From assembly GCA_016188475.1 (NCBI GenBank), contig JACPHT010000006.1, positions 2,330-66,329 on the forward strand: a DNA stretch of 64,000 bases, in the 5' to 3' direction. Of this stretch, positions 1-13,143 are shown piece after piece (position 1 is the stretch's first letter; every line of letters starts with the position of its first letter). A program made the position numbers and the translations under genes. Source of the DNA: Candidatus Uhrbacteria bacterium (GTDB taxonomy: Bacteria > Patescibacteriota > Patescibacteriia > UBA9934 > GWF2-40-263). The notes under the pieces were generated by a model. It saw nothing but the letters and a program-made list of their open reading frames with translations. It had not been told where the DNA came from and searched no databases.

Positions 1-489
1 TTGGATACAAAAGTTGTTCAACCAAAAACTGCATCAACAGCATCAAAGGAAGATCGAGCCGCTATGTTGATTCTCGGACTTTATGTGATGGACCCAGGAG
101 CTTTTCCTGAACTCTCTGCTGATATACATTTTCCAGAAAACAGCTCTTCATTAACTGTTGAGCTTTACACTCTTGCCAAAAGGCTTTACAATTCTTCCAA
201 CACTGCACAAAAACAATCTTTTTTTTCGAGGCTTGAAAATCACCTAAAAAGCGAGTCAAGAGAAGACCTTGTAAAGCTTCTCATAGAAATTTATTTTCTC
301 GCTGAAACAGCATTTTCACAATTGCCATCCGAAAATGTGCAGAAACAACTTAATATGCTCCTTTTGCTTCTGCGTCATTCAGAAGCGCAGAACAAACGCA
401 AAAATATAGCGATGGAGTTACGCCAAGCCGAACATGCCGGCGACAAGGAAACTGTTAAACGGCTTCTTTCAGAGTTAAATCATTTTTGA
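1..489 (+). CDS. hypothetical protein, 5' end truncated by window edge
   Basis: Open frame runs from base 1 to the stop at 489, so the 5' end lies outside the window. No recognisable motifs. Confidence 0.3.
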
Positions 490-490
490 G

Positions 491-1762
491 GTGAGCATGA
501 TTTTTTTTGGTATGAATAAGACAAAGAAAAAGAACAAGAAATTTGATAAGAACAAAAAAAAGCACGTGAAAAAAGTTGTAAAAAAACACGTGGCGAGAAA
601 ACGACAAGAACCGAGTAAGAAATTTGTATCAAAAAAGGTTCAACCAGAGCGTGTTCGCTATAAGCGAGCTGAACCTCCGTCTGTTGAGGTCATAAACAAA
701 ATTCTCGAGAAAGGAAAACAGCGCGGATACATTACTGAAAATGAAGTTCTGTTTACATTCACAGAAGTCGAGGATTATGTTGATTTTTTTGAAGAATTTT
801 TGGATCGTATGGAACGACTCGGGATTCATTTTATTGAACTCAAAGAAGGAATTCTTGGTCGTGAAGTAGAACGTGGGGAAGTGTATGACAAAATTCGTCT
901 CACGCATGAGCGGCAGAAAGGCGCGGCAATTCCAGAGCTGACTCAAGATTCAATTCAAATGTATTTACGCGAGATCGGAAAGATTCCATTGCTCAATGGT
1001 GAACAGGAAGTTTCACTTGCAAAACGAAAAGAGCGAAATGAAAAAGAGGCTGAACGTCGTTTGATCGAAGCAAACTTGCGCCTTGTTGTTTCGATTGCAA
1101 AAAAGTTCGTTGGAAAACAAATGTCGCTATTGGATTTGATTCAGGAGGGGAACATCGGACTTTTTCGAGCTGTAAAAAAATTCGATTATCGAAAAGGTTA
1201 CAAGTTTTCAACTTACGCGACTTGGTGGATCAGGCAAGCAATCACGCGCGCGCTTGCTGATCAGTCGCGTACAATTCGTATCCCGGTTCACATGGTTGAA
1301 ACAATAAATCGTTTTCAACAAATTGAACGCCAACTTATTCAAGACTTGGGTCGTGAACCTCTTCCGGAAGAAATTGCCGCGGAAATGGGAGAGTCAATTT
1401 CCAAAGTCCGTCATATTCGAAAAATTTCTCAAGAGACAGTGTCGCTTGAAACGTCTGTTGGTGATGATGATGAAGACTCAAAACTTGAAGACTTTTTGGA
1501 AGACGTCAAAACGATTTCGCCGGATCGTCAGGCCGCTCGAGAACTTTTAAAAGATTATGTTACAAAAGCAATGGAAGGATTAACGCCGCGCGAACAAAAG
1601 ATTTTGGAAATGCGTTTTGGTTTAACAGATGGAGTCAGTCATACACTTGAAGAAGTCGGCCGTGAGTTTGATGTGACACGCGAACGCATTAGGCAAATTG
1701 AAGCAAAAGCGCTTGAAAAGATACAAGCAGATCCACTAATTGAAAAATTGAGAGACTATTAG
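491..1762 (+). CDS. rpoD: RNA polymerase sigma factor RpoD (sigma-70) with Lys-rich N-terminal extension
   Basis: Region 2 ([12 protein letters not shown]), region 3 and region 4 ([15 protein letters not shown]...[21 protein letters not shown]) motifs are present. N-terminus is K-rich ([17 protein letters not shown]). Confidence 0.9.
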
Positions 1763-1813
1763 TTTGCAACGTTGTGAAATACTCGGCGATATACTAATTG
1801 CAAAGTCATAAAT

Positions 1814-2467
1814 ATGGCAATTAACGAAAAGGAGGTGATCGCTAATGCTCAACAAGACCCAGAGGCGTTCGGGCAGTTGTACGATGAGTACTACAAGCCC
1901 ATCTTTGGGTTTATGTACAGCAGAACCGGAAACAACGAAGTCGCAAAGGATTTAACAAGCGAAACTTTTTTTCAAGCTCTTAAAAATCTTCATCGATTTA
2001 AGTATCGAGAAGGCATATCGATTAAGTCTTGGCTTTTTGCGATTGCGGTTTCACAAATTGGAAATTATTTTCGCCAAAGAGCGAAAGTTTTTGAAGTAAC
2101 AATTGATGAAGCGCCGGAGATAATCGAACGTGATGAATTTCGGCCTGACGTTGCATTTCAAATTGGTGAAGACGTGGAAGAAGTAAGGAACAAGATAGTT
2201 CAATTGCGGCGCGTGATGAAACAGTTAAATCAAAAACAACAAGATATAATCACACTGAGATTTTTTTCGAAAATGACAATTCCAGATATCGCCGCAACAA
2301 TGAAAATGAAAGAGGGAACGATCAAATCGCATATTCATCGAGCGATTAAAAAAATGTCTGTTCTAATGATTCAAGAATCAAATGCGATTCAAGAATCAAA
2401 TGAGTCGACCAAGTCAGCTCAAAACGTATATGTCTTCCATTCTGAACCAAATCGAAGAAATGCTTGA
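1814..2467 (+). CDS. ECF-type sigma-70 family sigma factor
   Basis: Sigma-70 region 2 (FGFMYSRTGN...DLTSETFFQALKNL) and region 4 HTH (DIITLRFFSKMTIPDIAATMKMKEGTIKSHIHRAIKKM). Confidence 0.75.
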   Translation: MAINEKEVIANAQQDPEAFGQLYDEYYKPIFGFMYSRTGNNEVAKDLTSETFFQALKNLHRFKYREGISIKSWLFAIAVSQIGNYFRQRAKVFEVTIDEAPEIIERDEFRPDVAFQIGEDVEEVRNKIVQLRRVMKQLNQKQQDIITLRFFSKMTIPDIAATMKMKEGTIKSHIHRAIKKMSVLMIQESNAIQESNESTKSAQNVYVFHSEPNRRNA

Positions 2468-2837
2468 ACGTTTGGGATCTATCCAAACTCCTGAAGAAAC
2501 AGCGCATCGTTATGAATTGCGACGCGAGCTTTTGTGTTCTAGATATTTCAATAAAAGCATCGAGCAACAAAAGTGGAATCGCTTAATGACGTTTACGGTT
2601 CCGCTTTTTGCTGGAGGAGCGCTTGTTGTTGTTTTTACAATAGCAAGCGTAACGATAAATGAATCATCACAAACTGAGTCGCCGATTGTTTCACGTTCAT
2701 CGCAAATGATTACAGCGTCAACTGAAACTTTTGATTCAAAGATAGAGTTAATAAATAGCGATCAGTTTTTATCGCCTGTTGATGAGATGGTTAAATTTGT
2801 CCCTGTGCACACAGCTTCATTTGAATTTGCACAATAG
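2382..2837 (+). CDS. putative anti-sigma factor, single-pass membrane protein
   Basis: Overlaps the 3' end of the ECF sigma gene. One TM segment (LMTFTVPLFAGGALVVVFTIASV). Real start may be the ATG at 2460, which overlaps the sigma TGA stop at 2465-2467. Confidence 0.4.
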   Translation: MRFKNQMSRPSQLKTYMSSILNQIEEMLERLGSIQTPEETAHRYELRRELLCSRYFNKSIEQQKWNRLMTFTVPLFAGGALVVVFTIASVTINESSQTESPIVSRSSQMITASTETFDSKIELINSDQFLSPVDEMVKFVPVHTASFEFAQ

Positions 2838-2941
2838 ATTTTTTATTTTCGATCCGCCTATTGACAACTTCTTGCGCGTCCGTTCTCATTTGGTATTATG
2901 TTTTTACTAATTCATAACGATCTTTGAATAAAATAAGACGT

Positions 2942-3082
2942 ATGTTTTGTCCATTCAGTTTTGACATTGGAGACGATGATTGGGGAAATGGCGATGATGA
3001 TGGTTTGGCAGAAGAAGCCACGACAGATGTCGACGACGACGAAGATGGCGCAAGCGACGACGAAGAGAACGAAGATTGGTAA
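2942..3082 (+). CDS. small acidic peptide (46 aa, D/E-rich)
   Basis: ATG at 2942 to TAA at 3080-3082. About 50% Asp/Glu. Followed by a weak hairpin (cgggc-ctaagaa-gcccg-tttt) at 3091-3111. Coding status is uncertain. Confidence 0.2.
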   Translation: MFCPFSFDIGDDDWGNGDDDGLAEEATTDVDDDEDGASDDEENEDW

Positions 3083-3115
3083 ATATAAAGCGGGCCTAAG
3101 AAGCCCGTTTTATGT

Positions 3116-3143
3116 TTGACAATTTTGTAAAAAAGTGTAAGAT
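3116..3143 (+). promoter_or_regulatory. candidate sigma-70 promoter TTGACA-16-TAAGAT
   Basis: TTGACA at 3116-3121 and TAAGAT at 3138-3143, upstream of an AAGGGGG SD (3162-3168) and the ATG at 3175. Confidence 0.25.
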
Positions 3144-3174
3144 CATTCGGTCAGCTATGCAAAGGGGGATGATA

Positions 3175-3930
3175 ATGAGAAGGTTCGGCCGTTGGCTCAA
3201 GGATCCGAAGTTCGGACCTGTGCAAGGGCTTTCAAAATCAGTGGGACGTTGGCTTTCCGATCATTTCACAGCCAATCAAGTGACGCTCATCGGGCTTGTT
3301 ATCTGCATACCGATGTCTCTCTTTTTCATGCTCGATCAATACATTGTCGGAGCGACCTTGCTTACCATAAGTCTTATCACGGATTTTATGGACGGCGCAT
3401 TGAGTCGCTATCAGCAAGGTTCACGACCAGCGATGACACTTGATGAGGAAGTGTCTCTGACACTCTGGAAGCGCGTCAATTATCGAGGTGTCACACACCT
3501 TGGTCGCACACTTGATCCGCTCGCAGACAAACTACGGTTCTTTCTTGTTCTTTATTCGCTTGGAATCGGTTATGTCGCAAACTGTGTGATCGTGTTGCTG
3601 ACGGTTGTTGCTGTTTGTCTGACGCTCATGCGTCCGATCAAACAGTATCTCAAGCTCGATAACGTGAGCAGTAACCGATTCGGGAAAATCAAAATCTGGG
3701 CGGAGATCATTGGAATGGCATTTCTGGTTTTCGTACCAGAGGGCTATCATCATCCAACGATCGTAACGATAGTGAACACTGTTTTCATTTTCGCGCTCGC
3801 GTTTGGAGTGTTTTCTCTGCTCGGACACATCTTCACAGGGTATCTCTCATATCGCAGGCGTAGTTGGCAAAGAATAAAGACGGCCATTCCTGTTACAGTC
3901 GAATCTACTGATACCGACGACGACTTCTGA
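3175..3930 (+). CDS. CDP-alcohol phosphatidyltransferase family protein
   Basis: Motif DFMDGALSRY...GRTLDPLADK matches the D-G-x2-A-R...G-x3-D-x3-D signature. Multiple TM segments. Start was moved from the track's 3112 to the ATG at 3175, which has an SD. Confidence 0.6.
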   Translation: MRRFGRWLKDPKFGPVQGLSKSVGRWLSDHFTANQVTLIGLVICIPMSLFFMLDQYIVGATLLTISLITDFMDGALSRYQQGSRPAMTLDEEVSLTLWKRVNYRGVTHLGRTLDPLADKLRFFLVLYSLGIGYVANCVIVLLTVVAVCLTLMRPIKQYLKLDNVSSNRFGKIKIWAEIIGMAFLVFVPEGYHHPTIVTIVNTVFIFALAFGVFSLLGHIFTGYLSYRRRSWQRIKTAIPVTVESTDTDDDF

Positions 3931-5140
3931 AGCCTGACCGGGCTTCTTTTTTTGGCCATCTTGGACCTTTCGGACCTCTGTAACCTCTGTATTGTGGTTG
4001 TTCTGGCGCGACTGGCTCGCCAGACGGAGTTTTCATTGCAAGTGTTTTTCTAATAAGCCTTTCAATTCCGCGAACATCTGCTTTTTGTTCAGGCGCCGCG
4101 AACGAAATCGCTTTGCCAGTTTTTCCAGCGCGTCCTGTTCGCCCGATTCTATGAACATAATCTTCCAGATGATCCGGCAAATCAAAATTCAAAACAAGCT
4201 CAATGTTTTTTACATCAATTCCTCGCGCTGCAATATCTGTTGCAACCAAAACGCGATACTTGCCAGACGAAAAACCTCTTAAAGCATCTTGGCGCTGGTT
4301 TTGTGAACGATTGGAATGAATCTCGGTAACAGTGTGATTCATTTGCTTAATCATGCGCGCGACTTTTGTTGCTCCGTGTTTTGTTCGTGTGAACAAAAGT
4401 ACGGTTCCTTTGTATTCCTTAAGTAGTCGTTCGAGCAGTTGGGCTTTTTCTGTTTTTGAGACTATGTAAACTTCTTGATCAACTTTTTCAATCGTTGTTC
4501 CAGATGGAGCGACCTCGATTCGCAAAGGTTGTTTCATGTATGTTCGCGCGATCTTTGCAATTTCCTCCGGCATTGTCGCAGAAAACAACATTGTTTGACG
4601 ATCAGTCGGAACAGTAACAAGAATTTTTTTAAGTTGTGGAGCAAATCCCATATCAAGCATGCGATCCGCTTCATCAAGCACTAACACTCCAACGCGATCA
4701 AGTTTCAAGTTTCTTTGTTCGAGATGATCAATAAGACGACCGGGTGTCGCAACAATGACGTGCGGTTTTGCGCGAAGTTGTCTTATTTGCGGATTCATTG
4801 GCACTCCGCCTATGAGCACGGCTGTGCGAAGACCCATTGTTATTCCAATTTTTCGTATGACTTCATCAACCTGAACAGCAAGCTCGCGAGTAGGGAGGAG
4901 AACAAGCCCCATTTTTGAACGCGCTGACATTTGTTGAAGCATCGGAATTGTAAAAGCAAGCGTCTTTCCAGTACCGGTTTGCGCAATTCCAATAAGATCT
5001 TCGCCTGTTGCGGCAACTGGAATTGCTTTGAATTGAATCGGTGTTGGATGCTTAAACCCAAGTTTTTCAAGTCTTTCTAAAAGCGTTGGAGCGATTCCTA
5101 ATCCGAAAAAGGTTTGTTCTTGAAGTTCTTCTCTAGGCAT
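3905..5140 (-). CDS. DEAD-box ATP-dependent RNA helicase
   Basis: Q motif (FKHPTPIQ), motif I AQTGTGKT, DEAD box (VLDEAD), SAT, HRIGRTGRAG. Start set at MPREELQ (5140). Arg/Gly-rich C-terminal tail. Confidence 0.85.
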   Translation of the reverse strand: MPREELQEQTFFGLGIAPTLLERLEKLGFKHPTPIQFKAIPVAATGEDLIGIAQTGTGKTLAFTIPMLQQMSARSKMGLVLLPTRELAVQVDEVIRKIGITMGLRTAVLIGGVPMNPQIRQLRAKPHVIVATPGRLIDHLEQRNLKLDRVGVLVLDEADRMLDMGFAPQLKKILVTVPTDRQTMLFSATMPEEIAKIARTYMKQPLRIEVAPSGTTIEKVDQEVYIVSKTEKAQLLERLLKEYKGTVLLFTRTKHGATKVARMIKQMNHTVTEIHSNRSQNQRQDALRGFSSGKYRVLVATDIAARGIDVKNIELVLNFDLPDHLEDYVHRIGRTGRAGKTGKAISFAAPEQKADVRGIERLIRKTLAMKTPSGEPVAPEQPQYRGYRGPKGPRWPKKEARSGFRSRRRYQ

Positions 5141-5213
5141 ATATGCATGGAGTCTATCAAATTTCTCAAATTTTAGCAATAAAAAAAGCTGAAGTGATGA
5201 AGTTTGATTCAGA

Positions 5214-5717
5214 TTGACGAAATTGTTTTTATTGATTACGCTCAAAAGCGTCCGTTTTCAGGACGATCAAAACGAGGTAAAAAAAGTGGAAGCTATGAGA
5301 GGAGTCAGACTTAATCTTGAAAAACGTCTGAAAGCAACTTTCGGAAACTCGATCACATGCGAACAGACTGAAATAGGAATGGCTGGAAGCGGCGGATTCG
5401 CGGTTGATCATGATCAGCAAGCCACTATCACAGCAATGCAATTCAGAAACGATGGTCTTTTCGTGAAGATATGTGAGAACACTTGGTATATTGTTCTCCG
5501 AATCAAGACGAGCAACATGATCAAGGTGGATGAATTTGTTCGAACACAGATTCCTTGCAAAGCACCAAAGACAGAGTGGCCGCCTACTGATGTCGAAGAC
5601 AGGTATCGGAAGTTTCGACGACAACTTCGTTCTGCTAGGTTTTACTGTGGAACTCTTTTGTCCGCTGTACTGCGAGCTCCAGTTCGAATGTTTTCTCGTC
5701 ATCGTCGTTCAACGTAA
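5214..5717 (+). CDS. hypothetical protein (uncertain; an overlapping ORF is open on the opposite strand)
   Basis: 504-nt ORF with no recognisable motifs. An intrinsic terminator lies immediately downstream on the + strand. A - strand ORF 5229..5702 is equally open. Confidence 0.2.
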   Translation: MTKLFLLITLKSVRFQDDQNEVKKVEAMRGVRLNLEKRLKATFGNSITCEQTEIGMAGSGGFAVDHDQQATITAMQFRNDGLFVKICENTWYIVLRIKTSNMIKVDEFVRTQIPCKAPKTEWPPTDVEDRYRKFRRQLRSARFYCGTLLSAVLRAPVRMFSRHRRST

Positions 5718-5747
5718 AACTTGCGTGATAAACGCGCGACTATTCTT

Positions 5748-5771
5748 ACGACCCATTCGGGTCGTTTTTTA
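5748..5771 (+). terminator. rho-independent terminator (acgaccc-attc-gggtcgt + T6)
   Basis: Stem 5748-5754 / 5759-5765, followed by TTTTTT. Confidence 0.5.
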
Positions 5772-6647
5772 TTTCAACTTTTCCTGAATCCAAGCGATAA
5801 TATGTTTTCTAAATTTTAAATTCGGTAGGTCTTTCAAAAGTTCAGCAGTCTTATCATCCAAACAAAGAATTTTTGATGAACCTTTTTCGAGATCTTTAAA
5901 GTTTACGAATGTATAATCTGATTTTTCTGTTTTTTGAATTTCTTTCATCATACTCATGATTTCTTCTCGACGTTCAGCAAGTAGTTTATCAACGCCGATA
6001 ATTTCAATCTGACCAATCGCGAAGGTTTTTTCTTCAATGACAATCGTTTTCAAATCGCCAAACAAAATTTCGCGCAGTCGATTACCTGATAAGTCGGACT
6101 TCGCAATGAACATTTTTTGTGCGAGATCATCTGGAGCGTTTGAAATTTGTTTTAACCAATCAGCCATTTCTCGATCGCGATCAGTTGAAATTCCCGTGAA
6201 ATTTTCTGTGTTAGAAATGATTGCTCCATAAAGAAACATCGCTGATTCTTTTGACGGTTTAATGTTTTCTTTTTTGAATCGTTCGGCAACTAGAGTTGCG
6301 GAAGCGCCTACAAGTTCAATTTGTGAAATTGCATTTGGAAAAGCTTTAATGTTGTTGATTCGTCTGTGGTCAATTATTTCGATAACTTGTTTGACTTGAA
6401 GCGGTTTTGGAAGATCATCAGGTGAACTTGCATCCAAAAGAACGACTTCAGTTGTTGTGTCGTCTGTTGGACCTTTTGCCTGCGGAAGTTTGAACCTATC
6501 CATAAACCATTGAACTTCAAGATGCGGCGTTCCCCAAATCCGGGTATGAGCGTCTTTTCCTTTTGTTTGAAGAAGTTCCGCGTATGCCATCGCTGATCCG
6601 TATCCATCAAGATCAGGATTTTCGTATGATGTAGTGATAGTTTTCAT
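5769..6647 (-). CDS. DHH-family phosphoesterase; resembles family II (Mn-dependent) inorganic pyrophosphatase / NrnA-like
   Basis: N-terminal YENPDLDGYGSAMAY (HxNPDxDxxxS-like) and a DHH-like IDHR motif. About 300 aa. Start placed at MKTITT. Confidence 0.55.
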   Translation of the reverse strand: MKTITTSYENPDLDGYGSAMAYAELLQTKGKDAHTRIWGTPHLEVQWFMDRFKLPQAKGPTDDTTTEVVLLDASSPDDLPKPLQVKQVIEIIDHRRINNIKAFPNAISQIELVGASATLVAERFKKENIKPSKESAMFLYGAIISNTENFTGISTDRDREMADWLKQISNAPDDLAQKMFIAKSDLSGNRLREILFGDLKTIVIEEKTFAIGQIEIIGVDKLLAERREEIMSMMKEIQKTEKSDYTFVNFKDLEKGSSKILCLDDKTAELLKDLPNLKFRKHIIAWIQEKLK

Positions 6648-6723
6648 ATAAAAATATTTTATCATACAGTGAGACACATCAAATAAAAACCACCCTCAAA
6701 TCGAGGGTGGCTTACAACGAAAT

Positions 6724-6924
6724 TTATACGCGAGTTACATTGACAGCGGCTGGTCCTTTTGGGCCAGAGTTGTCGATCTCGAAGTTGACTGTGTCGCCAA
6801 CGTTCAACTCGTCATATGTCACACCTTGGAGCTCTTTTGAGTGGAAGAAAAGATCCTTTGCCTCGCCTTCGCGAGAAATGAATCCAAATCCCTTTTCCGT
6901 AAGAGTCTTGATTGTTCCTGTCAT
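6724..6924 (-). CDS. cspA: cold-shock protein (CspA family)
   Basis: 66 aa. MTGTIKTLTEKGFGFI...FFH motifs (RNP1/RNP2). Confidence 0.9.
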   Translation of the reverse strand: MTGTIKTLTEKGFGFISREGEAKDLFFHSKELQGVTYDELNVGDTVNFEIDNSGPKGPAAVNVTRV

Positions 6925-7224
6925 ACGAATGTGTTTTGGTTGCTTATTTTGAAACTCGACTTTGTTTCTATGTCTAAATGACAGCGATAGTATAGATTAA
7001 GTCTCTGATTTTAGCAAGGGCTTGTTAAACCCATAAGCAGCCAATGTCCTTGTCTAGAGTTTGATGCTTTGTTATAATCACGTCGTTCTTAATAATGAAC
7101 ATTCGGGGGTTCCGCCAGAGGCGGACTGACCTTTTTTGTCAGAGCTTCAGTGCTGCGCCCGCCTTTGGCGGGGCAGAGCAGTTTCAGCCTTAGGCTGACC
7201 CGCCTTTGGCGGGGGCTGTTGATT

Positions 7225-7473
7225 ATGTCTTATACAATTTATATTCTGCGCAGTCTCAAAAATGAGAAACGATACATTGGTTATACTGGGAAAAGTGTTG
7301 ATGAAAGATTCCATGAACATTTATCCGGTACGAATCAATGGACTCGACAGAACGGTCCGTTCATTTTGATTCATACTGAGTCATTCAATGACAAAGAATC
7401 AGCCATTAAACGTGAACGTTTTCTAAAAAGCGGTCAAGGTCGTAAATGGCTTGATGAAAATATTCGGGGGTAG
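7225..7473 (+). CDS. GIY-YIG nuclease superfamily protein (YhbQ/UPF0213-like)
   Basis: YTIYILRS...RYIGYTGKSVDERFHEHLSG matches the GIY-YIG core. Its stop codon TAG (7471-7473) lies inside the tRNA 5' exon. Confidence 0.7.
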   Translation: MSYTIYILRSLKNEKRYIGYTGKSVDERFHEHLSGTNQWTRQNGPFILIHTESFNDKESAIKRERFLKSGQGRKWLDENIRG

Positions 7474-7782
7474 CTCAGTGGCAGAGCAGTTGGCTGTGAC
7501 CAGGATCAGACGGTCCAAATAGCAGCTTCCGGTGGAAACATCGGATGAAAAATGAGGTGAATTGCTGGAAGTCTTCGATGAAAATATCTTGATAATCAGC
7601 AGCCAAGCCCCGCTACAGCGGGGAAGGTTCAGAGACTATCCGAAAGGAGTACTGTTTCGACTTTGGTTGAAACGGGAAGCGCCTCACGCCCTTTTGGGCG
7701 ATGATATAGTCCACCCCTTTGGGAAACCAGAGGATTATGTGTAACCAATTGGTCGTGGGTTCGAATCCCACCCCCCGAGCCA
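7464..7782 (+). tRNA. tRNA-Asn(GUU) interrupted by a 244-nt group I intron (exons 7464-7497 and 7742-7782; CCA encoded)
   Basis: The exons rebuild a canonical tRNA. Acceptor UCGGGGG/CCCCCGA; D arm GCUC-AGUGGCA-GAGC; anticodon stem GUUGG/CCAAU; loop CUGU|UAA; V loop UGGUC; T arm GUGGG-UUCGAAU-CCCAC; G73; CCA. U1 and G73 match bacterial tRNA-Asn. The alternative splice junction CU|UGUAA would give Thr(UGU). Confidence 0.7.
7498..7741 (+). ncRNA. group I self-splicing intron (IC3-like) in the tRNA anticodon loop
   Basis: P element AATTGCTGGAA at 7560-7570, Q AATCAGCAGC at 7594-7603, R GTTCAGAGACTA at 7627-7638, S GATATAGTCC at 7703-7712. Candidate IGS GCAGCU (7522-7527) pairs with exon GGCUGU (7492-7497) with U.G at the splice site. 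Terminal G is 7741. No ORF inside. Confidence 0.75.
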
Positions 7783-7971
7783 AAAAACAACCATCGTAAG
7801 TAAGATGGTTGTTTTTTGGCTCCGAACCCTGAACGAAATCCGAACTTTTTTTAGCGAAAATCCGAACGCTGAATTTTGAAAAATTTTTAAGCTCGGGCGG
7901 GCAAAAAGGAAGGAGGTTGGGGGGAAGGAATTTTTGCCCGCCCTCGCTTTTCCGCCGCCGCCGAATTTCGT
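7782..7971. repeat. left arm (IR-L) of a ~190-bp near-perfect inverted repeat flanking the 5-kb cassette
   Basis: The reverse complement of 12953-13143 matches this arm with one substitution (ggaaggagg vs ggaagaagg) and one extra A in the A-run. Contains the terminator hairpin and a nested GGGCGGGCAAAAA...TTTTTGCCCGCCC hairpin. Confidence 0.85.
7783..7820 (+). terminator. rho-independent terminator after the tRNA (aacaaccatc-gtaagtaa-gatggttgtt + T6)
   Basis: A perfect 10-bp stem followed by TTTTTT directly after CCA. It forms the outer part of the left inverted repeat. Confidence 0.6.
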
Positions 7972-8049
7972 ATTTCGCTTTGCGAAATGCGCCGCCAAAG
8001 AAGATGTTGCCCTTGCCCCAGCCCTCCCGTGCGCGGGCAACGACAAGGA

Positions 8050-8147
8050 ACTCCCTTTTGTCTTTACGAATCTCAATAAATTTGATAATATAGTAATAAA
8101 TTAAGCAATATAAATCGCTATTACTTTAATTATAGTAATATATTACA
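8050..8147 (+). promoter_or_regulatory. AT-rich promoter/operator region upstream of the XRE gene with repeated TAGTAATA motifs
   Basis: tagtaataaatt...attacttt...tagtaatatattac repeats sit immediately 5' of 8148. Possible C-box-like operator (inference). Confidence 0.3.
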
Positions 8148-8363
8148 ATGTCGTCAATAAACAAATCCACTATCGCAGAGAATATGAAGAAATACCGAAA
8201 CAAGCTCGGTATTTCTCAAGATAGGCTCTCAAAACTTGCTGATGTTACCTATAACACGATTATCAAGATTGAATCGGGAGCAAACATCAACCCAACCATA
8301 GAAACGCTGTCTAAAATCGCCAAAGCGCTTAATGTTGGCGTTGATGATTTAATACAGAAATAA
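8148..8363 (+). CDS. XRE-family HTH transcriptional regulator (controller-protein-like)
   Basis: 71 aa. HTH_XRE pattern LGISQDRLSKLADVTYNTIIKIESG. The next gene starts 2 nt after its stop. Confidence 0.75.
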   Translation: MSSINKSTIAENMKKYRNKLGISQDRLSKLADVTYNTIIKIESGANINPTIETLSKIAKALNVGVDDLIQK

Positions 8364-8365
8364 TT

Positions 8366-9502
8366 ATGGCTAGAACATCCTCAATCAAAAATCTAAAGAA
8401 AGCAAGGAAAGCAAAGAACGATGAGTTTTATACCCAATACGGCGACATTCAAAAAGAGATTGAAAAATATCTGGATTATAATCCTGATACTTTTCGCAAC
8501 AAGGTAGTGTATTGCAACTGCGATGATCCGTTTGAAAGCAATTTTTTCCGTTATTTTGTGCTGAATTTTAACAAACTTGGATTGAAACAGCTTATCACCA
8601 CCAGCTATAAACCTTCACCTGTAGCCAACACCCAGCTACAACTGTTTGGTAATGACAAGACTCTTCCGAAATCAAAAGGGCGTCCCAAGATAACCGCCAA
8701 CAAATTTATTATTAACGAAGTGCACGACATAGACGAAGACGGCGAATTCAACTTAAAAGATGTTTCCAAGCAATTAAAAGCAAACAAAAACAATGAATGG
8801 ACGCCACTAGAGGGCGACGGCGATTTTCGTAGCGATGAATGTATTAGTTTGCTTAAACAATCCGACATTGTCGTAACGAACCCCCCCTTTAGTTTGTTTC
8901 GTGAATATGTTAAGCAACTTTTTGATTATAATAAAAAGTTTTTGATTATCGGCAATATTAATTGTCTAACTTATCGAGAGATATTCCAAAAAATTAAAGA
9001 AAATAGAGCATGGCTTGGCAATGGAATGGGAAGGTGGATTTCTGGATTTATTGTGCCTGAATCTTACGAATTGTACGGATCAGAAGCACGAATAGACGAA
9101 AATGGAAACAGAATTGTCGCCACTAATAATTGTTTGTGGCTCACTAATCTTGACCACGGGCGCCGTCATCAACCATTGCCACTTATGACAATGGCGGAGA
9201 ATTTAAAGTATAGTAAACATAAAGAAATTAAAGGAAAAAAGTCGTATGATAAATACGATAATTACAAAGCAATAGAAGTACCTTTTACAGATGCAATACC
9301 AAGTGATTATAAGGGCGTAATGGGTGTGCCAATTACTTTTCTTGATAAATATAATCCTGACCAATTTGAAATTTTAGGAAATTCTAATGTTCGAGGAGAA
9401 CGAGAACATTTAATGAATAATGTAAAAAGTGCAACGGATTGCACTTATATAAACGGTAAGGCGCAATTTGCGCGTATTTTAATTAAACATAAGAAAAAAT
9501 AA
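8366..9502 (+). CDS. N6-adenine-specific DNA methyltransferase (amino-MTase)
   Basis: Motif IV IVVTNPPFSLF (NPPF). Degenerate motif I region NCDDPFESNFF. 378 aa. Confidence 0.7.
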   Translation: MARTSSIKNLKKARKAKNDEFYTQYGDIQKEIEKYLDYNPDTFRNKVVYCNCDDPFESNFFRYFVLNFNKLGLKQLITTSYKPSPVANTQLQLFGNDKTLPKSKGRPKITANKFIINEVHDIDEDGEFNLKDVSKQLKANKNNEWTPLEGDGDFRSDECISLLKQSDIVVTNPPFSLFREYVKQLFDYNKKFLIIGNINCLTYREIFQKIKENRAWLGNGMGRWISGFIVPESYELYGSEARIDENGNRIVATNNCLWLTNLDHGRRHQPLPLMTMAENLKYSKHKEIKGKKSYDKYDNYKAIEVPFTDAIPSDYKGVMGVPITFLDKYNPDQFEILGNSNVRGEREHLMNNVKSATDCTYINGKAQFARILIKHKKK

Positions 9503-9503
9503 T

Positions 9504-10106
9504 ATGAAAGGTGTTATTTATATAATAACAACGGCTGTTTCCGGTTTGATAAAGATCGGACAAACAGGCACAAATAATTATCAAGAAAGAATGCGAAATC
9601 TTGAGGCAAATGGTTATTATAATGTTTCTGGTCTAAAAAGATTTTTTGCAATTGAACTTGATGATTACAATGAGAAAGAAAATCTTTTAAAAGAAATTTT
9701 TAATAAACATCGTGTTGGGGATAGTGAATTATTTGCCCTTGATTATGATTTAGTGCGACAACTTTTGTTATCATTCGAAGGTAAAGTGATTTATCCCAAA
9801 GATGTAAATAAAGAAAAGGAATTTGACGAAGTTTCAAAAGCTAGAGAGCAAGGAACAAGGTTTAGTTTTTATAAAAAAGGAATTAAGAACGGAGAAGAAA
9901 TTGTTTTTATAGCTGACAAAGAAATCACCGCGAAAGTGGTTGGCGAGCGTGAAGTGGAATATGGCGAACAAATTTGGAAACTTGCGCCATTAACATACAA
10001 GATATACGAGCAAAAAGGAGGATTAAATGAGAGTGGCGCATACCAAGGAGCTGCTTATTGGCAATATAAAGGCAAAAGATTAAGAGATTTACCTGATATC
10101 AACTAA
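9504..10106 (+). CDS. T5orf172 / GIY-YIG-like domain protein
   Basis: GVIYIITTAVSGLIKIGQTGTNNYQERMRNLE...GDSELFALD matches the T5orf172 (Mug113-like) pattern. Starts 1 nt after the MTase stop. Confidence 0.55.
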   Translation: MKGVIYIITTAVSGLIKIGQTGTNNYQERMRNLEANGYYNVSGLKRFFAIELDDYNEKENLLKEIFNKHRVGDSELFALDYDLVRQLLLSFEGKVIYPKDVNKEKEFDEVSKAREQGTRFSFYKKGIKNGEEIVFIADKEITAKVVGEREVEYGEQIWKLAPLTYKIYEQKGGLNESGAYQGAAYWQYKGKRLRDLPDIN

Positions 10107-10115
10107 CAACATTAT

Positions 10116-11282
10116 ATGATTACAACTTTAAAAACTAACATTACTGTTAAAGACATTTGCGAAGGGTTTGTTTATAACGAACTTGAAGGCAAGGGCTTGT
10201 TTGGCTTGTCTGGTAAACTAACTATTCAGCCAGAATACCAACGCAATTATATTTATGCTTCTGACGGCGGCAAAAGAGAAATGGCTGTTATTGAATCAGT
10301 CCTCAAGGGATACCCGATAGGATTGATTTATTTTAATAAAATAATCAGCAATAATTTTGAAGTTCTTGACGGACAACAACGCATCACCAGTCTTGGACGA
10401 TTTATTACTGATAAATTTGCTATCAAAGATGAAAACGGAATGCAATATTTTGGTGGCTTAGCAAAAGACAAGAAAAATAAGATATTGGAAACTAAACTGC
10501 TTATTTATGAATGTGAGGGCACGGAAAGTCAGATCAAGGAGTGGTTCAAAACAATCAATATTGCCGGGGTTCCGCTCGTCCCTCAAGAATTGTTAAATGC
10601 GATTTATTCTGGTCCATTTGTTACATTGGGCAAAGAGGAATTCAGTAATAGCCAAAATGCCAATGTTCAAAAATGGAGCGTATACATAAGAGGAAGTGTA
10701 GATCGACAGGCATTTTTTGAAAGAGCATTAGACTGGGTAAGTAAAGGAAATATTGATGATTACATGAGCATTCATCGCAATGACAAAAATATCAATGAGT
10801 TAAAAAAATATTTCAACAGTGTGATCGATTGGATATCAAGTGTGTTTACGGATGTAGAAAGCGAGATGTGCGGACTTGAATGGGGGCGATTGTATGAGCA
10901 GTACCACAAGAAATCTTATGATCCCAAAAAAGTATTAGTCGAAGTACAAAAACTCTACGCCGATCCGTATGTAAAAAATCGCAAAGGCATTTTTGAGTTT
11001 ATTTTAGGTGGCTCTATTGATACAAAATTGCTTGAAGTCCGAGTTTTTGATGAAGCAATTAAAAAAGCAGTATACAAAGAACAAACAACTAAAGCCGAGA
11101 AGAAAAAAGTATCGAACTGCCCACTTTGTGCTATTGGACACGATGCAAACAAAGAAAAAATTTGGAGCTTGAGCGATATGGACGCTGACCATGTTTCGGC
11201 TTGGAGCAAGGGCGGTAAAAGTGATATAAAAAATTGCCAAATGTTGTGTAAAACCCACAATCGCGCAAAAGGTAATCGATAA
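10116..11282 (+). CDS. DUF262 (ParB-like, GmrS-type) domain fused to a C-terminal HNH nuclease; Type IV restriction-like
   Basis: N-terminal DGQQRITSL (the DGQQR motif of DUF262). C-terminal CPLCAIGH...DADHVSAWSKGGKSDIKNCQMLCKTHNRAKGN (HNH His-Me finger). Confidence 0.7.
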   Translation: MITTLKTNITVKDICEGFVYNELEGKGLFGLSGKLTIQPEYQRNYIYASDGGKREMAVIESVLKGYPIGLIYFNKIISNNFEVLDGQQRITSLGRFITDKFAIKDENGMQYFGGLAKDKKNKILETKLLIYECEGTESQIKEWFKTINIAGVPLVPQELLNAIYSGPFVTLGKEEFSNSQNANVQKWSVYIRGSVDRQAFFERALDWVSKGNIDDYMSIHRNDKNINELKKYFNSVIDWISSVFTDVESEMCGLEWGRLYEQYHKKSYDPKKVLVEVQKLYADPYVKNRKGIFEFILGGSIDTKLLEVRVFDEAIKKAVYKEQTTKAEKKKVSNCPLCAIGHDANKEKIWSLSDMDADHVSAWSKGGKSDIKNCQMLCKTHNRAKGNR

Positions 11283-11285
11283 ACT

Positions 11286-11945
11286 ATGAGTGATAAATTT
11301 TCAATTGAAGACTTAATAATGAAAGTAATGCCCGGAGGTTTTTTGTTGGCAATATTCTATTTTTTGTTCAGGGAAAAAATCCAATTTAACTTTATTGAAA
11401 ATTTAGATTTCTTTTACACTTTTTTATTTTTTTGTTCGGCTTATATAATCGGAGAATTATTACAAACCATTGCTCATGAAATTGAATGTATTATTAATAT
11501 TTTCTTCAAATTAAGACGGCCATCGGAAATATTTTTATACAAAAACAATCCAATAACAAAGAGCGAATACAAAAGGAATGAGTTGATGAAAGAGCTTAGA
11601 TTGGAAGAAACAGAATCAAAACTTTTTGATCAAGAATACTCCGATTTATCTTTTTGGTGGTGGAAAAGGAATAAAAAGAGTGACGAGGTATCACAAAGTA
11701 TATTTTGGAAGCTCTATTCTAATATAAACCAAACAGATGAAATAAAAATTGCAAATAGGAATTATTTATTTGTTCGCGTAATGATGTTAGAATTTTTATT
11801 GATAGGAATTATTTTTATTATTGATAAAAATTTTTATTTGAGCTTTTTAAGTTTTTTGTTTTGCATTATTTTTTTATGGAGGGGCAGAGGTACTGCAAGG
11901 GGCTTAGTATTTAAAACTATATTATTAAATTTAAAAAATAGTTGA
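11286..11945 (+). CDS. integral membrane protein (4 predicted TM), unknown function
   Basis: Two hydrophobic segments at each terminus. 3-nt gap from the upstream gene. Confidence 0.5.
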   Translation: MSDKFSIEDLIMKVMPGGFLLAIFYFLFREKIQFNFIENLDFFYTFLFFCSAYIIGELLQTIAHEIECIINIFFKLRRPSEIFLYKNNPITKSEYKRNELMKELRLEETESKLFDQEYSDLSFWWWKRNKKSDEVSQSIFWKLYSNINQTDEIKIANRNYLFVRVMMLEFLLIGIIFIIDKNFYLSFLSFLFCIIFLWRGRGTARGLVFKTILLNLKNS

Positions 11946-11946
11946 T

Positions 11947-12930
11947 ATGAAAAAACTTGTTATATTAAATGTGGGTGGCGCTTTAGCATCATACGCCGAA
12001 ATTGATGATAAAAAGGTAATAATTGATTTAGGAAAAAGTACTGATTTTTCACCAGTAGACAATTTTTTAATCCCATTGGCTCAGAAGCGATCTTTTAGAA
12101 AAACAGACATCGCTGGAAACACAGAAAAATATCACATAGACCAATTATTCCTAAGTCATTTGGACAATGACCACATTTCGGATTATGAAAAATTTAGGGA
12201 AAAATTTCATCCCAACTATATGACTTGTCCAAATGACAATGAAACACAGGATAGTATTTTTAAAATCATCATCAGTTTTTTCACTGGCGAAAATAATGCA
12301 AGAAAACTGGTTCTTTCTGATATGAAAACGAGGACGGCGAATGTTCCTGGTAATCCTTATGGGATGTCGCCTTCAAATCCGCTTGTCTCTATTATCCCAG
12401 AAATAATGAAGCTATTTTACATCAAACCGACCGAGTGCGGAAACGATGAAAATTTAAAACCCGGGTATGCAAATAATATAAGCCTTCTTCTATTTTTTCA
12501 TTCAAATAATAAAACACTTTTAATGCCTGGCGACATATTAAAAGAGGGTATGGAGTGTCTAATTAAACGCAATAACGATTTCAAAAAGCAACTTAACGAT
12601 TTTGGTGTTGACTTCTTAATTGCTCCTCATCACGGGCTTGCGACTTCATTTTCTGAACGATTATTTCAAGAAATTAAAGGAAATAAAACAAGACTAAATA
12701 TTATTTCCGAAAAAGTTAGAGAGGAAGATTCTGACGAAAACCGATCAGATGTTGATAAAAGATATTACGATTCTAATTATTCATCCGGAGAAAATTCTTT
12801 AAAACAAAACGCTGTGAAAACATCAATGGGACATATTGTAATAGATTTAGAATCTGACGAAACTGAGATTAAACAATGCTCTGATATTAATGATGTTTTA
12901 AAAGAATTTATTCCAGTTTCTAACTCGTAA
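11947..12930 (+). CDS. metallo-beta-lactamase-fold hydrolase, ComEC C-terminal-domain-like
   Basis: SHLDNDHI (HxHxDH variant), LMPGD, LIAPHHGL; compare ComEC ...HHGS. 1-nt gap from the upstream gene. Confidence 0.65.
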   Translation: MKKLVILNVGGALASYAEIDDKKVIIDLGKSTDFSPVDNFLIPLAQKRSFRKTDIAGNTEKYHIDQLFLSHLDNDHISDYEKFREKFHPNYMTCPNDNETQDSIFKIIISFFTGENNARKLVLSDMKTRTANVPGNPYGMSPSNPLVSIIPEIMKLFYIKPTECGNDENLKPGYANNISLLLFFHSNNKTLLMPGDILKEGMECLIKRNNDFKKQLNDFGVDFLIAPHHGLATSFSERLFQEIKGNKTRLNIISEKVREEDSDENRSDVDKRYYDSNYSSGENSLKQNAVKTSMGHIVIDLESDETEIKQCSDINDVLKEFIPVSNS

Positions 12931-12952
12931 GCGGCGCGCCAACTTTGTTGGC

Positions 12953-13143
12953 ACGAAATTCGGCGGCGGCGGAAAAGCGAGGGCGGGCAAAAATTCCTTC
13001 CCCCCAACCTTCTTCCTTTTTGCCCGCCCGAGCTTAAAAATTTTTCAAAATTCAGCGTTCGGATTTTCGCTAAAAAAAGTTCGGATTTCGTTCAGGGTTC
13101 GGAGCCAAAAAACAACCATCTTACTTACGATGGTTGTTTTTTT
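12953..13143. repeat. right arm (IR-R) of the ~190-bp inverted repeat
   Basis: Reverse complement of 7782-7971 (see IR-L). Confidence 0.85.

Follow-up and report, generated by a model that had tools for sequence, protein, structure and literature searches.

Group I introns in the anticodon loops of bacterial tRNA genes are classically known from tRNA-Leu(UAA) of cyanobacteria and plastids (inserted at 34/35), tRNA-fMet(CAU) (33/34), tRNA-Arg(CCU) (36/37) and the tRNA-Ile of Azoarcus. A further class was described in Patescibacteria: in a survey of 95 complete genomes, group I introns were found to interrupt 15 tRNA-Asn(GUU) and three tRNA-Asp(GUC) genes at position 35/36 (Nakagawa et al., mSystems 2026; preprint 2025; PMC13011429). 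In that study, GTP-dependent self-splicing was obtained in vitro, the sequencing of the ligated tRNA placed the excision at 35/36, and mutation of the terminal G to C abolished ligation; 25 of the 28 introns at 35/36 were classed as subgroup IA, and four of the tRNA-Asn introns carried HNH endonuclease genes (PMC13011429). According to Nakagawa et al., the class was first listed by Williams 2020 (bioRxiv 10.1101/2020.01.27.920355) as 'Asn.4Ug', a label that we repeat on their authority. Here we analyze a stretch of 64,000 nucleotides (the window) from the contig JACPHT010000006.1 of a Candidatus Uhrbacteria bacterium (assembly GCA_016188475.1). Positions 7464-7782 of the window almost certainly constitute a functional gene for tRNA-Asn(GUU), into which a 244-nt group I ribozyme without an open reading frame (ORF), of the type with P7.1 and P7.2 (subgroup IA-like), is inserted between U35 and U36. 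The intron adds a member to the published, in vitro-validated tRNA-Asn 35/36 class. The initial annotation of this DNA, which proposed the split gene, knew of no Asn(GUU) host and regarded the 35/36 position as atypical; both remarks are superseded by the published introns, which splice in vitro (PMC13011429).

The 5' exon (7464-7497) supplies tRNA positions 1-35 and ends in GGCUGU, with U35 as the -1 nucleotide; the intron occupies 7498-7741; and the 3' exon (7742-7782) supplies positions 36-76, begins with UAACC and carries G73 and an encoded CCA (7780-7782). All these parts, and the intron elements described below, lie on the forward strand. The joined exons form a 75-nt cloverleaf with perfect stems, which ARAGORN calls tRNA-Asn(GTT). 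The 7-bp acceptor stem (U1-A72), G73, the CCA end and the anticodon loop CUGU/UAA (the slash marks the junction) are all in place. The exon halves, cloverleaf, G73 and CCA of the initial annotation thus hold at every coordinate. The U1-A72 pair together with G73 is a hallmark of bacterial tRNA-Asn, and bacterial tRNA-Thr typically starts with G1-C72. Run with default settings on the whole window, ARAGORN reports no tRNA at all; an Rfam scan found no rRNA in the 64 kb. Directly upstream of the tRNA, on the same strand, lies a gene for a GIY-YIG protein (7225-7473), which overlaps the 5' exon by 10 nt (7464-7473), its TAG stop codon coinciding with tRNA nucleotides 8-10.

The Rfam model RF00028 (Intron_gpI), proposed as a check by the initial annotation, scores 83.0 bits at the locus (gathering score 50; E = 1.3e-19), and this is the sole Rfam match in the window. 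The span of this match (7410-7733) does not mark the intron ends: the 5' part of the model is misaligned onto upstream DNA, and the terminal G is not reached. The group I hallmark elements lie where they were first placed, namely P at 7560-7570 (AATTGCTGGAA), Q at 7594-7603 (AATCAGCAGC), R at 7627-7638 (GTTCAGAGACTA) and S at 7703-7712 (GATATAGTCC); together they comprise both strands of P4 and of P7, plus flanks. The minimum free energy (MFE) fold of 7492-7747 reaches -95.9 kcal/mol (z = -5.37 against 200 dinucleotide shuffles) and recovers P1, P2, P3, P4, P5, P6, P6a, P7.1, P7.2, P8 and P9. In P1, the exon sequence GGCUGU (7492-7497) pairs with the guide GCAGCU (7522-7527), bringing U7497.G7522 to the 5' splice site; the intervening L1 loop (7498-7521) holds a small hairpin, GACC/GGUC. 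P2 (7528-7534/7539-7545) is a hairpin with a GAAA tetraloop. P3 (7553-7559/7680-7686) encloses P4-P6, the 5' strand of P7, P7.1 and P7.2. The P4 helix (7563-7568/7596-7601) corresponds to the elements first named P and Q, and is followed by P5 (7571-7573/7591-7593), P6 (7602-7604/7626-7628) and the P6a hairpin (7608-7613/7618-7623). P7, to which R and S belong, pairs GACUA (7634-7638) with UAGUC (7707-7711); it is placed by the Rfam alignment, forms a pseudoknot with P3 and, by analogy, would hold the guanosine-binding site. The remaining elements are P8, a GCCC UUUU GGGC hairpin (7688-7699), P9, a hairpin with a GAAA tetraloop (7716-7722/7727-7733), and the terminal (omega) G at 7741.

The fold is conserved among homologues and supported by covariation. 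We aligned 56 introns of at most 350 nt, each with six exon bases per side, using MAFFT and projected the helices of the window onto the alignment. Standard pairs occupy 84.8% of the cells compared with 69.4% in shuffled alignments, and none of 500 shuffles equals the observed value. In a slid control, where the 3' partners were moved by 1-3 columns, only 33-47% of the cells were paired. Cells with double changes number 625, against 220 in the shuffles. Covariation is seen in P2, P3, P4, P5, P6, P6a, P8 and P9, in agreement with the MFE fold. Both sides change in 7/7 pairs of P2 and double changes occur in 6/7 pairs of P9; P3 is paired in 91.6% of the cells, with double changes in three pairs; and P4 alternates between CTGG/CAGC, CGGG/CCGC, GGTG/ACCG and AGGG/CCTG. 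Neither P7 nor the core of P1 (the four pairs UG, GC, UA and CG) varies in any of the 56 introns; this shows their conservation, and covariation says nothing about them either way. The guide GCAG stands at one aligned position, and its G lies opposite U35 in all 56. Exon position 31 (G or A) does not covary with the guide, which stays GCAGCY even with A31; P1 is therefore best described as an invariant 4-bp CUGU/GCAG helix with an optional extension, conserved but lacking proof from covariation. The P1 first proposed, with its guide and its U.G pair at the splice site, agrees with this alignment, and the assignment of G7741 as the last intron nucleotide is borne out by a terminal G in 93/93 split genes collected (see below).

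Compared with the RF00028 consensus, the intron has a 39-nt insert between the 5' strand of P7 and the 3' strand of P3. In the MFE fold this insert forms two hairpins, P7.1 with a GAAA loop (7639-7641/7646-7648) and P7.2 (7652-7661/7666-7675), and the P7.1 motif TCCC-loop-GGGAGTA is kept in most homologues. Introns of subgroup IA carry P7.1/P7.2 at this very place. The classical tRNA introns share with the window intron a group I ribozyme within a bacterial tRNA anticodon loop, a P1 that uses anticodon-loop nucleotides, and a short, usually ORF-less form; they differ in their insertion positions and hosts, and in being overwhelmingly of subgroup IC (IC3), without P7.1/P7.2. The likeness to the Patescibacteria tRNA-Asn introns is much closer: host tRNA, insertion site, U.G and terminal-G boundaries and GCAG guide are the same, and the P7.1/P7.2 architecture agrees with their assignment to subgroup IA (PMC13011429). 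In an alignment with two sequences from Table S3 of that study, the guide, P3, P4, P6, R, S and P9 blocks are common to all. The homologue from GCA_016700035.1, a member spliced in vitro (PMC13011429), shares its anticodon arm with the window (GCAGTTGGCTGT and TAACCAATTGG on the two sides of the intron), and likewise its ...GTG intron end; in the alignment, its core is homologous. From the published members the window intron differs in sequence, and in its L1 a small hairpin stands in place of an HNH ORF. The longest stop-free stretch of the intron is 62 codons and resembles neither HNH nor any other endonuclease; there is therefore no homing-endonuclease ORF in the intron, as the initial annotation had it, and the intron-encoded endonuclease of mobile homing group I introns is absent here.

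The insertion point was fixed using intron-less alleles. A metagenome scan recovered intron-less tRNA-Asn(GTT) genes behind homologues of the GIY-YIG gene, and these are up to 67/72 (93%) identical to the joined exons of the window. In two of them (loci L399 and L400) the anticodon arm, CAGTTGGCTGTTAACCAATTGG, is identical to that of the window. Because the intron-less GGCTGTTAACC permits only one placement of a 244-nt insert, the insertion lies at CTGT^TAA, in agreement with the host Asn(GUU) and the 35/36 position originally proposed. We also considered the tRNAs found by ARAGORN in Patescibacteria loci as an Asn/Thr test; they were too few and too distant, and the syntenic intron-less alleles were used instead. 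The tRNA body points in the same direction. In an anticodon-masked search of 5,426 E. coli RefSeq genomes, 12/12 best matches listed are PGAP-annotated tRNA-Asn, with 83-85% identity over 88% of the query; in an unmasked search of a phage collection, 17/25 matches listed are annotated as tRNA-Asn and four as tRNA-Val.

To collect relatives of the intron, species-representative genomes were scanned for an S element followed by G/TAAYC (the slash marks the 3' splice site) and a T-arm. This gave at least 120 matches, and among those listed a script paired the 3' matches with a 5' half in 92 loci, making 93 split genes with the window. There are thus at least 92 further split tRNA-Asn genes, mostly in Patescibacteria; among the matches listed, the arrangement of the 5' exon recurs in all 92. 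The common architecture is an exon 1 of the form UC.....UAGCUCAG...CUGU, the intron, and an exon 2 of the form UAAYC...GUUCGA..., with U1, A72 and G73 as invariant in 93/93 as the terminal intron G. To judge by their record titles, the hosts comprise Saccharibacteria, Parcu-, Uhr-, Portnoy-, Falkow-, Moran-, Doudna-, Magasanik- and Kaiserbacteria and Gracilibacteria; further split tRNA-Asn genes occur in metagenome-assembled genomes (MAGs) of Omnitrophota, Elusimicrobia and Planctomycetes, and in loosely labelled bins. Among the matches listed, the nearest relatives of the window intron, exons and GIY-YIG gene are labelled Patescibacteria. The window intron represents a divergent variant of the short form; the closest relative over the full length in the sample, from an Uhrbacteria MAG (L285), shares about 77% identity with it.

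Intron lengths among the 93 genes fall into two groups, with 60 introns at 185-450 nt and 33 at 524-723 nt. Most of the long introns contain a conserved ORF of about 100 amino acids (CxxC...HH...CxxCH), which starts from the first bases of the intron and lies inside L1; it scores 19-20 bits against Pfam HNH, just below the cut-off of 21.4. Examples of long introns are found at L247, L259, L261, L262, L264, L266, L271, L274, L275, L281, L294, L296, L299 and L300. The HNH-type ORF looks frameshifted or decayed in several long introns, e.g. L256, L307, L331, L332, L334 and L348. The share of long introns (33/93 collected) is larger than the share of 4/15 reported for tRNA-Asn introns with HNH genes in complete genomes. 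The long, HNH-encoding introns occupy the same site and have the same ribozyme core as the window intron, which is the short, ORF-less form without autonomous homing capacity.

A minority of the introns at 35/36 (L246, L265, L298, L326, L330, L346 and L356) have a different core, in which GGGATAAC..GGTGAA replaces GGTGAATTG..CTGGAA, and lack P7.1/P7.2 after GACTA. From these sequences, more than one structural lineage seems to occupy the tRNA-Asn 35/36 site. In a viral collection, the matches listed for the generic patterns R..S and R..S..GTAAYC were unrelated group I introns, mostly of one large family, with no close relatives among them. The second pattern matched more than 100 viral and giant-virus contigs (L121-L238) that share one highly conserved intron family with the 3' flank TAATCCTCAAATTACTTTCTGGAAAGT...; this family, which has no relation to the tRNA intron, apparently interrupts a protein-coding gene. 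Among the matches listed, the only split tRNA-Asn in a viral contig is a truncated one (L146).

The GIY-YIG gene that adjoins the tRNA was examined as a possible partner of the intron. It encodes a protein of 82 amino acids (forward strand; Pfam PF01541, 55 bits, and a gene call on a Logan contig) that comprises the catalytic domain only and is weakly similar to TIGR01453. A promoter-like site (TTGTCT-17-TATAAT with an upstream TG) lies ahead of this gene at 7050-7078, and no such site was found between the gene and the tRNA. An intron that has no endonuclease of its own might be kept mobile by collaborative homing, the adjacent free-standing GIY-YIG nuclease cutting intron-less tRNA-Asn alleles. 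Such a role would fit the distribution among the split genes. A same-strand GIY-YIG gene lies directly upstream in 11/59 short-intron loci with at least 300 nt of upstream sequence (the window, L285, L265, L326, L253, L246, L286, L322, L352, L288 and L257), all 11 with short introns and eight, the window included, with the exact gene-tRNA overlap of the window. Among the loci with HNH-length introns the count is 0/33, a single one (L338) having an opposite-strand copy 464 nt upstream. However, the picture changes in a sample drawn blind to introns. A search from a 5-sequence alignment retrieved 80 GIY-YIG homologues from metagenomes (L364-L443), 75 of them with at least 100 nt of downstream sequence. 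In 59/75 a same-strand tRNA starts between -15 and +80 nt from the GIY-YIG gene, with the exact overlap of the window in 17, and the partners are mostly not split tRNA-Asn genes: 21 are intron-less tRNA-Asn, eight are split tRNA-Asn and 30 are others (eight Lys; the rest Ser, Ile(UAU), Val, Pro, Phe, His, Ala, Arg and Gln). Since the partners are so varied, the association is with tRNA genes in general and not with the intron. The bare catalytic domain, without a DNA-binding module, likewise argues against collaborative homing, which we consider very unlikely.

Two further observations come from the same sample. One homologue (L393) precedes an intron of 528 nt, which is of HNH size; this too counts against collaborative homing. 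In four loci (L369, L373, L376 and L378) ARAGORN reports an Ile(TAT) tRNA immediately downstream of the GIY-YIG gene; bacterial genomes seldom encode a UAU anticodon for Ile.

The tandem of a GIY-YIG gene and a tRNA gene is thus widespread, and we found no description of it in the literature searched. The nearest parallel is SegB of phage T4, a free-standing GIY-YIG homing endonuclease encoded in a tRNA gene cluster (PMC2330249). What the two have in common is a GIY-YIG nuclease gene placed amid tRNA genes or beside one; they differ in that SegB, a phage protein, is a full-length homing endonuclease that includes a DNA-binding part, whereas the window protein is a predicted bare catalytic domain on a bacterial chromosome. 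Tentatively, and with far more doubt than belief, the tandem could be read as a module, either selfish or regulatory, that is linked to tRNA genes and in which the 35/36 intron could shield the tRNA-Asn gene. If so, tRNA loci could be the targets of the nuclease, or nuclease expression could be linked to the processing of the tRNA; such a link is conceivable because RNase P, by cleaving at the 5' end of the tRNA, would separate the mRNA from its stop codon, if the two are co-transcribed. The intron, in turn, could guard the tRNA-Asn gene against a nuclease or integrase that has the uninterrupted anticodon arm as its recognition site. The tandem is the only thread of this locus that is novel, and only mildly so; the intron itself is a typical member of its class.

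For the window intron itself, standard group I chemistry would proceed as follows. The precursor may be co-transcribed with the GIY-YIG gene from the promoter-like site at 7050-7078, and a hairpin that straddles the tRNA 3' end and is followed by a U-run (7777-7822, forward strand; from a repeat search) is likely a terminator. Pairing of the exon GGCUGU with the guide GCAGCU would form P1 and present U7497.G7522; exogenous guanosine bound in P7 would cleave after U7497; and G7741 would then take the place of the guanosine in the same P7 pocket. Ligation of the exons would yield the anticodon loop CUGUUAA in a 75-nt tRNA-Asn(GUU) with an encoded CCA, and the predicted junction reads GGCUGUUAACC.

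Several points weigh against this account of a working split gene. Splicing of the window copy, and its role as the working tRNA-Asn gene of the cell, are predicted from homologues and sequence. P10 would comprise at most 2 bp (UA/UA) and is uninformative. P7.2 is paired in only 41% of the cells of the alignment, where MAFFT misaligns this length-variable hairpin, and the subgroup, judged solely from the anatomy of P7.1/P7.2, can be called no more than IA-like. There is no second tRNA-Asn gene within the 64 kb, but an intron-less copy may exist beyond the window. Taken to its end, this last point would lead to a decayed relic, a tRNA pseudogene with an intron that no longer splices, in a cell whose tRNA-Asn is supplied by another gene; the near absence of P10 and an internal loop in P5 would suit such decay. 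The catalytic core, however, is intact at the positions invariant in the 56 homologues, namely P7, J8/7 (GAUAUAGUCC), the U.G pair and the terminal G, and the stems built by the tRNA exons are perfect. The intron sequence, the conserved and covarying fold, the exact insertion point and the homology to members that splice in vitro are all observed. Decay is thus very improbable, and a functional tRNA-Asn(GUU) gene remains by far the better reading.

The same intron could also be spliced two nucleotides further 5', with U7495 ending the exon and G7739 ending the intron, which would turn the product into a tRNA-Thr(UGU) with an intron at 33/34. The initial annotation had named this junction (CU/UGUAA) as an alternative and proposed ARAGORN in intron mode as a check. 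The program does recover a split tRNA with a 244-nt intron, as expected, but gives its isotype as Thr: its call for the locus is tRNA-Thr(tgt) i(33,244), two bases 5' of the Asn reading. The Thr product, too, folds into a perfect cloverleaf, a U (U7495) stands before the splice site, G7739 could act as the terminal G, and a G at intron position -3 is also present in 70/93 homologues collected. It is absent in the other 23/93, though, and since no terminal G is available at -3 in these, they cannot be spliced to tRNA-Thr. In the conserved P1, U33 faces an A of the guide and not a G, leaving the Thr site without a U.G wobble, and the candidate guides of a Thr model lie at scattered, non-homologous positions. 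The tRNA body resembles tRNA-Asn, and its U1-A72 pair with G73 departs from the G1-C72 of a typical bacterial tRNA-Thr. ARAGORN and tFind systematically mislabel the published genes as Thr(UGU) 33/34, the very mis-call made for the window, and for these homologues the call was shown to be wrong by sequencing of the Asn junction (PMC13011429). With six independent lines of evidence in favour of Asn(GUU) at 35/36, splicing to tRNA-Thr is hardly credible.

The practical consequence concerns annotation. In this window the default tRNA finder reports no tRNA and the intron-aware one gives a tRNA-Thr; because tRNA finders miss or mislabel split tRNA-Asn genes, completeness scores and inferences on codon capacity are biased for such genomes. 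The bias is avoided by checking the junction against intron-less homologues. The sequence-only reading of the initial annotation recognised the split tRNA and the ribozyme, and chose the right splice site where ARAGORN chose the wrong one. The gain for biology is small, as group I introns at 35/36 of tRNA-Asn were already published and experimentally validated and, by the scan above, occur in well over a hundred genomes at the species level.

The tRNA borders an unusual segment on its 3' side. A 190-nt inverted repeat, 99% complementary between its arms (7782-7971 and 12953-13142), begins at the last base of the tRNA CCA, and the hairpin at the tRNA 3' end also begins its left arm. The enclosed segment (7972-12952) measures 4,981 nt and has a GC content of 33-35% compared with about 41%. 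Reading of the ORF translations alone suggests an XRE-type regulator (8148-8363), a probable DNA methyltransferase (8366-9502), a DUF262/HNH-like protein (10116-11282) and an MBL-fold-like protein (11947-12930). An island at the tRNA, either invertible or bounded by terminal inverted repeats, is one possible explanation of the segment, and an assembly artefact is another. An apparent 41-nt direct repeat, considered as the att site of a tRNA-integrated island, proved to be part of the 190-nt inverted repeat. Logan contigs of the same organism (SRA runs SRR121133xx-121134xx) are short and break at the tRNA.

On the other side, window positions 1-7100 are an ordinary bacterial chromosome context. 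With Pfam labels taken from Logan gene calls of the same organism, this region contains the 3' end of dnaG, rpoD (491-1762), an ECF-type sigma factor (1814-2467), a CDP-alcohol phosphatidyltransferase (3112-3930), a DEAD-box helicase (3905-5245, reverse strand), a DHH/DHHA2 phosphoesterase (5769-6677, reverse strand) and a cold-shock protein gene.

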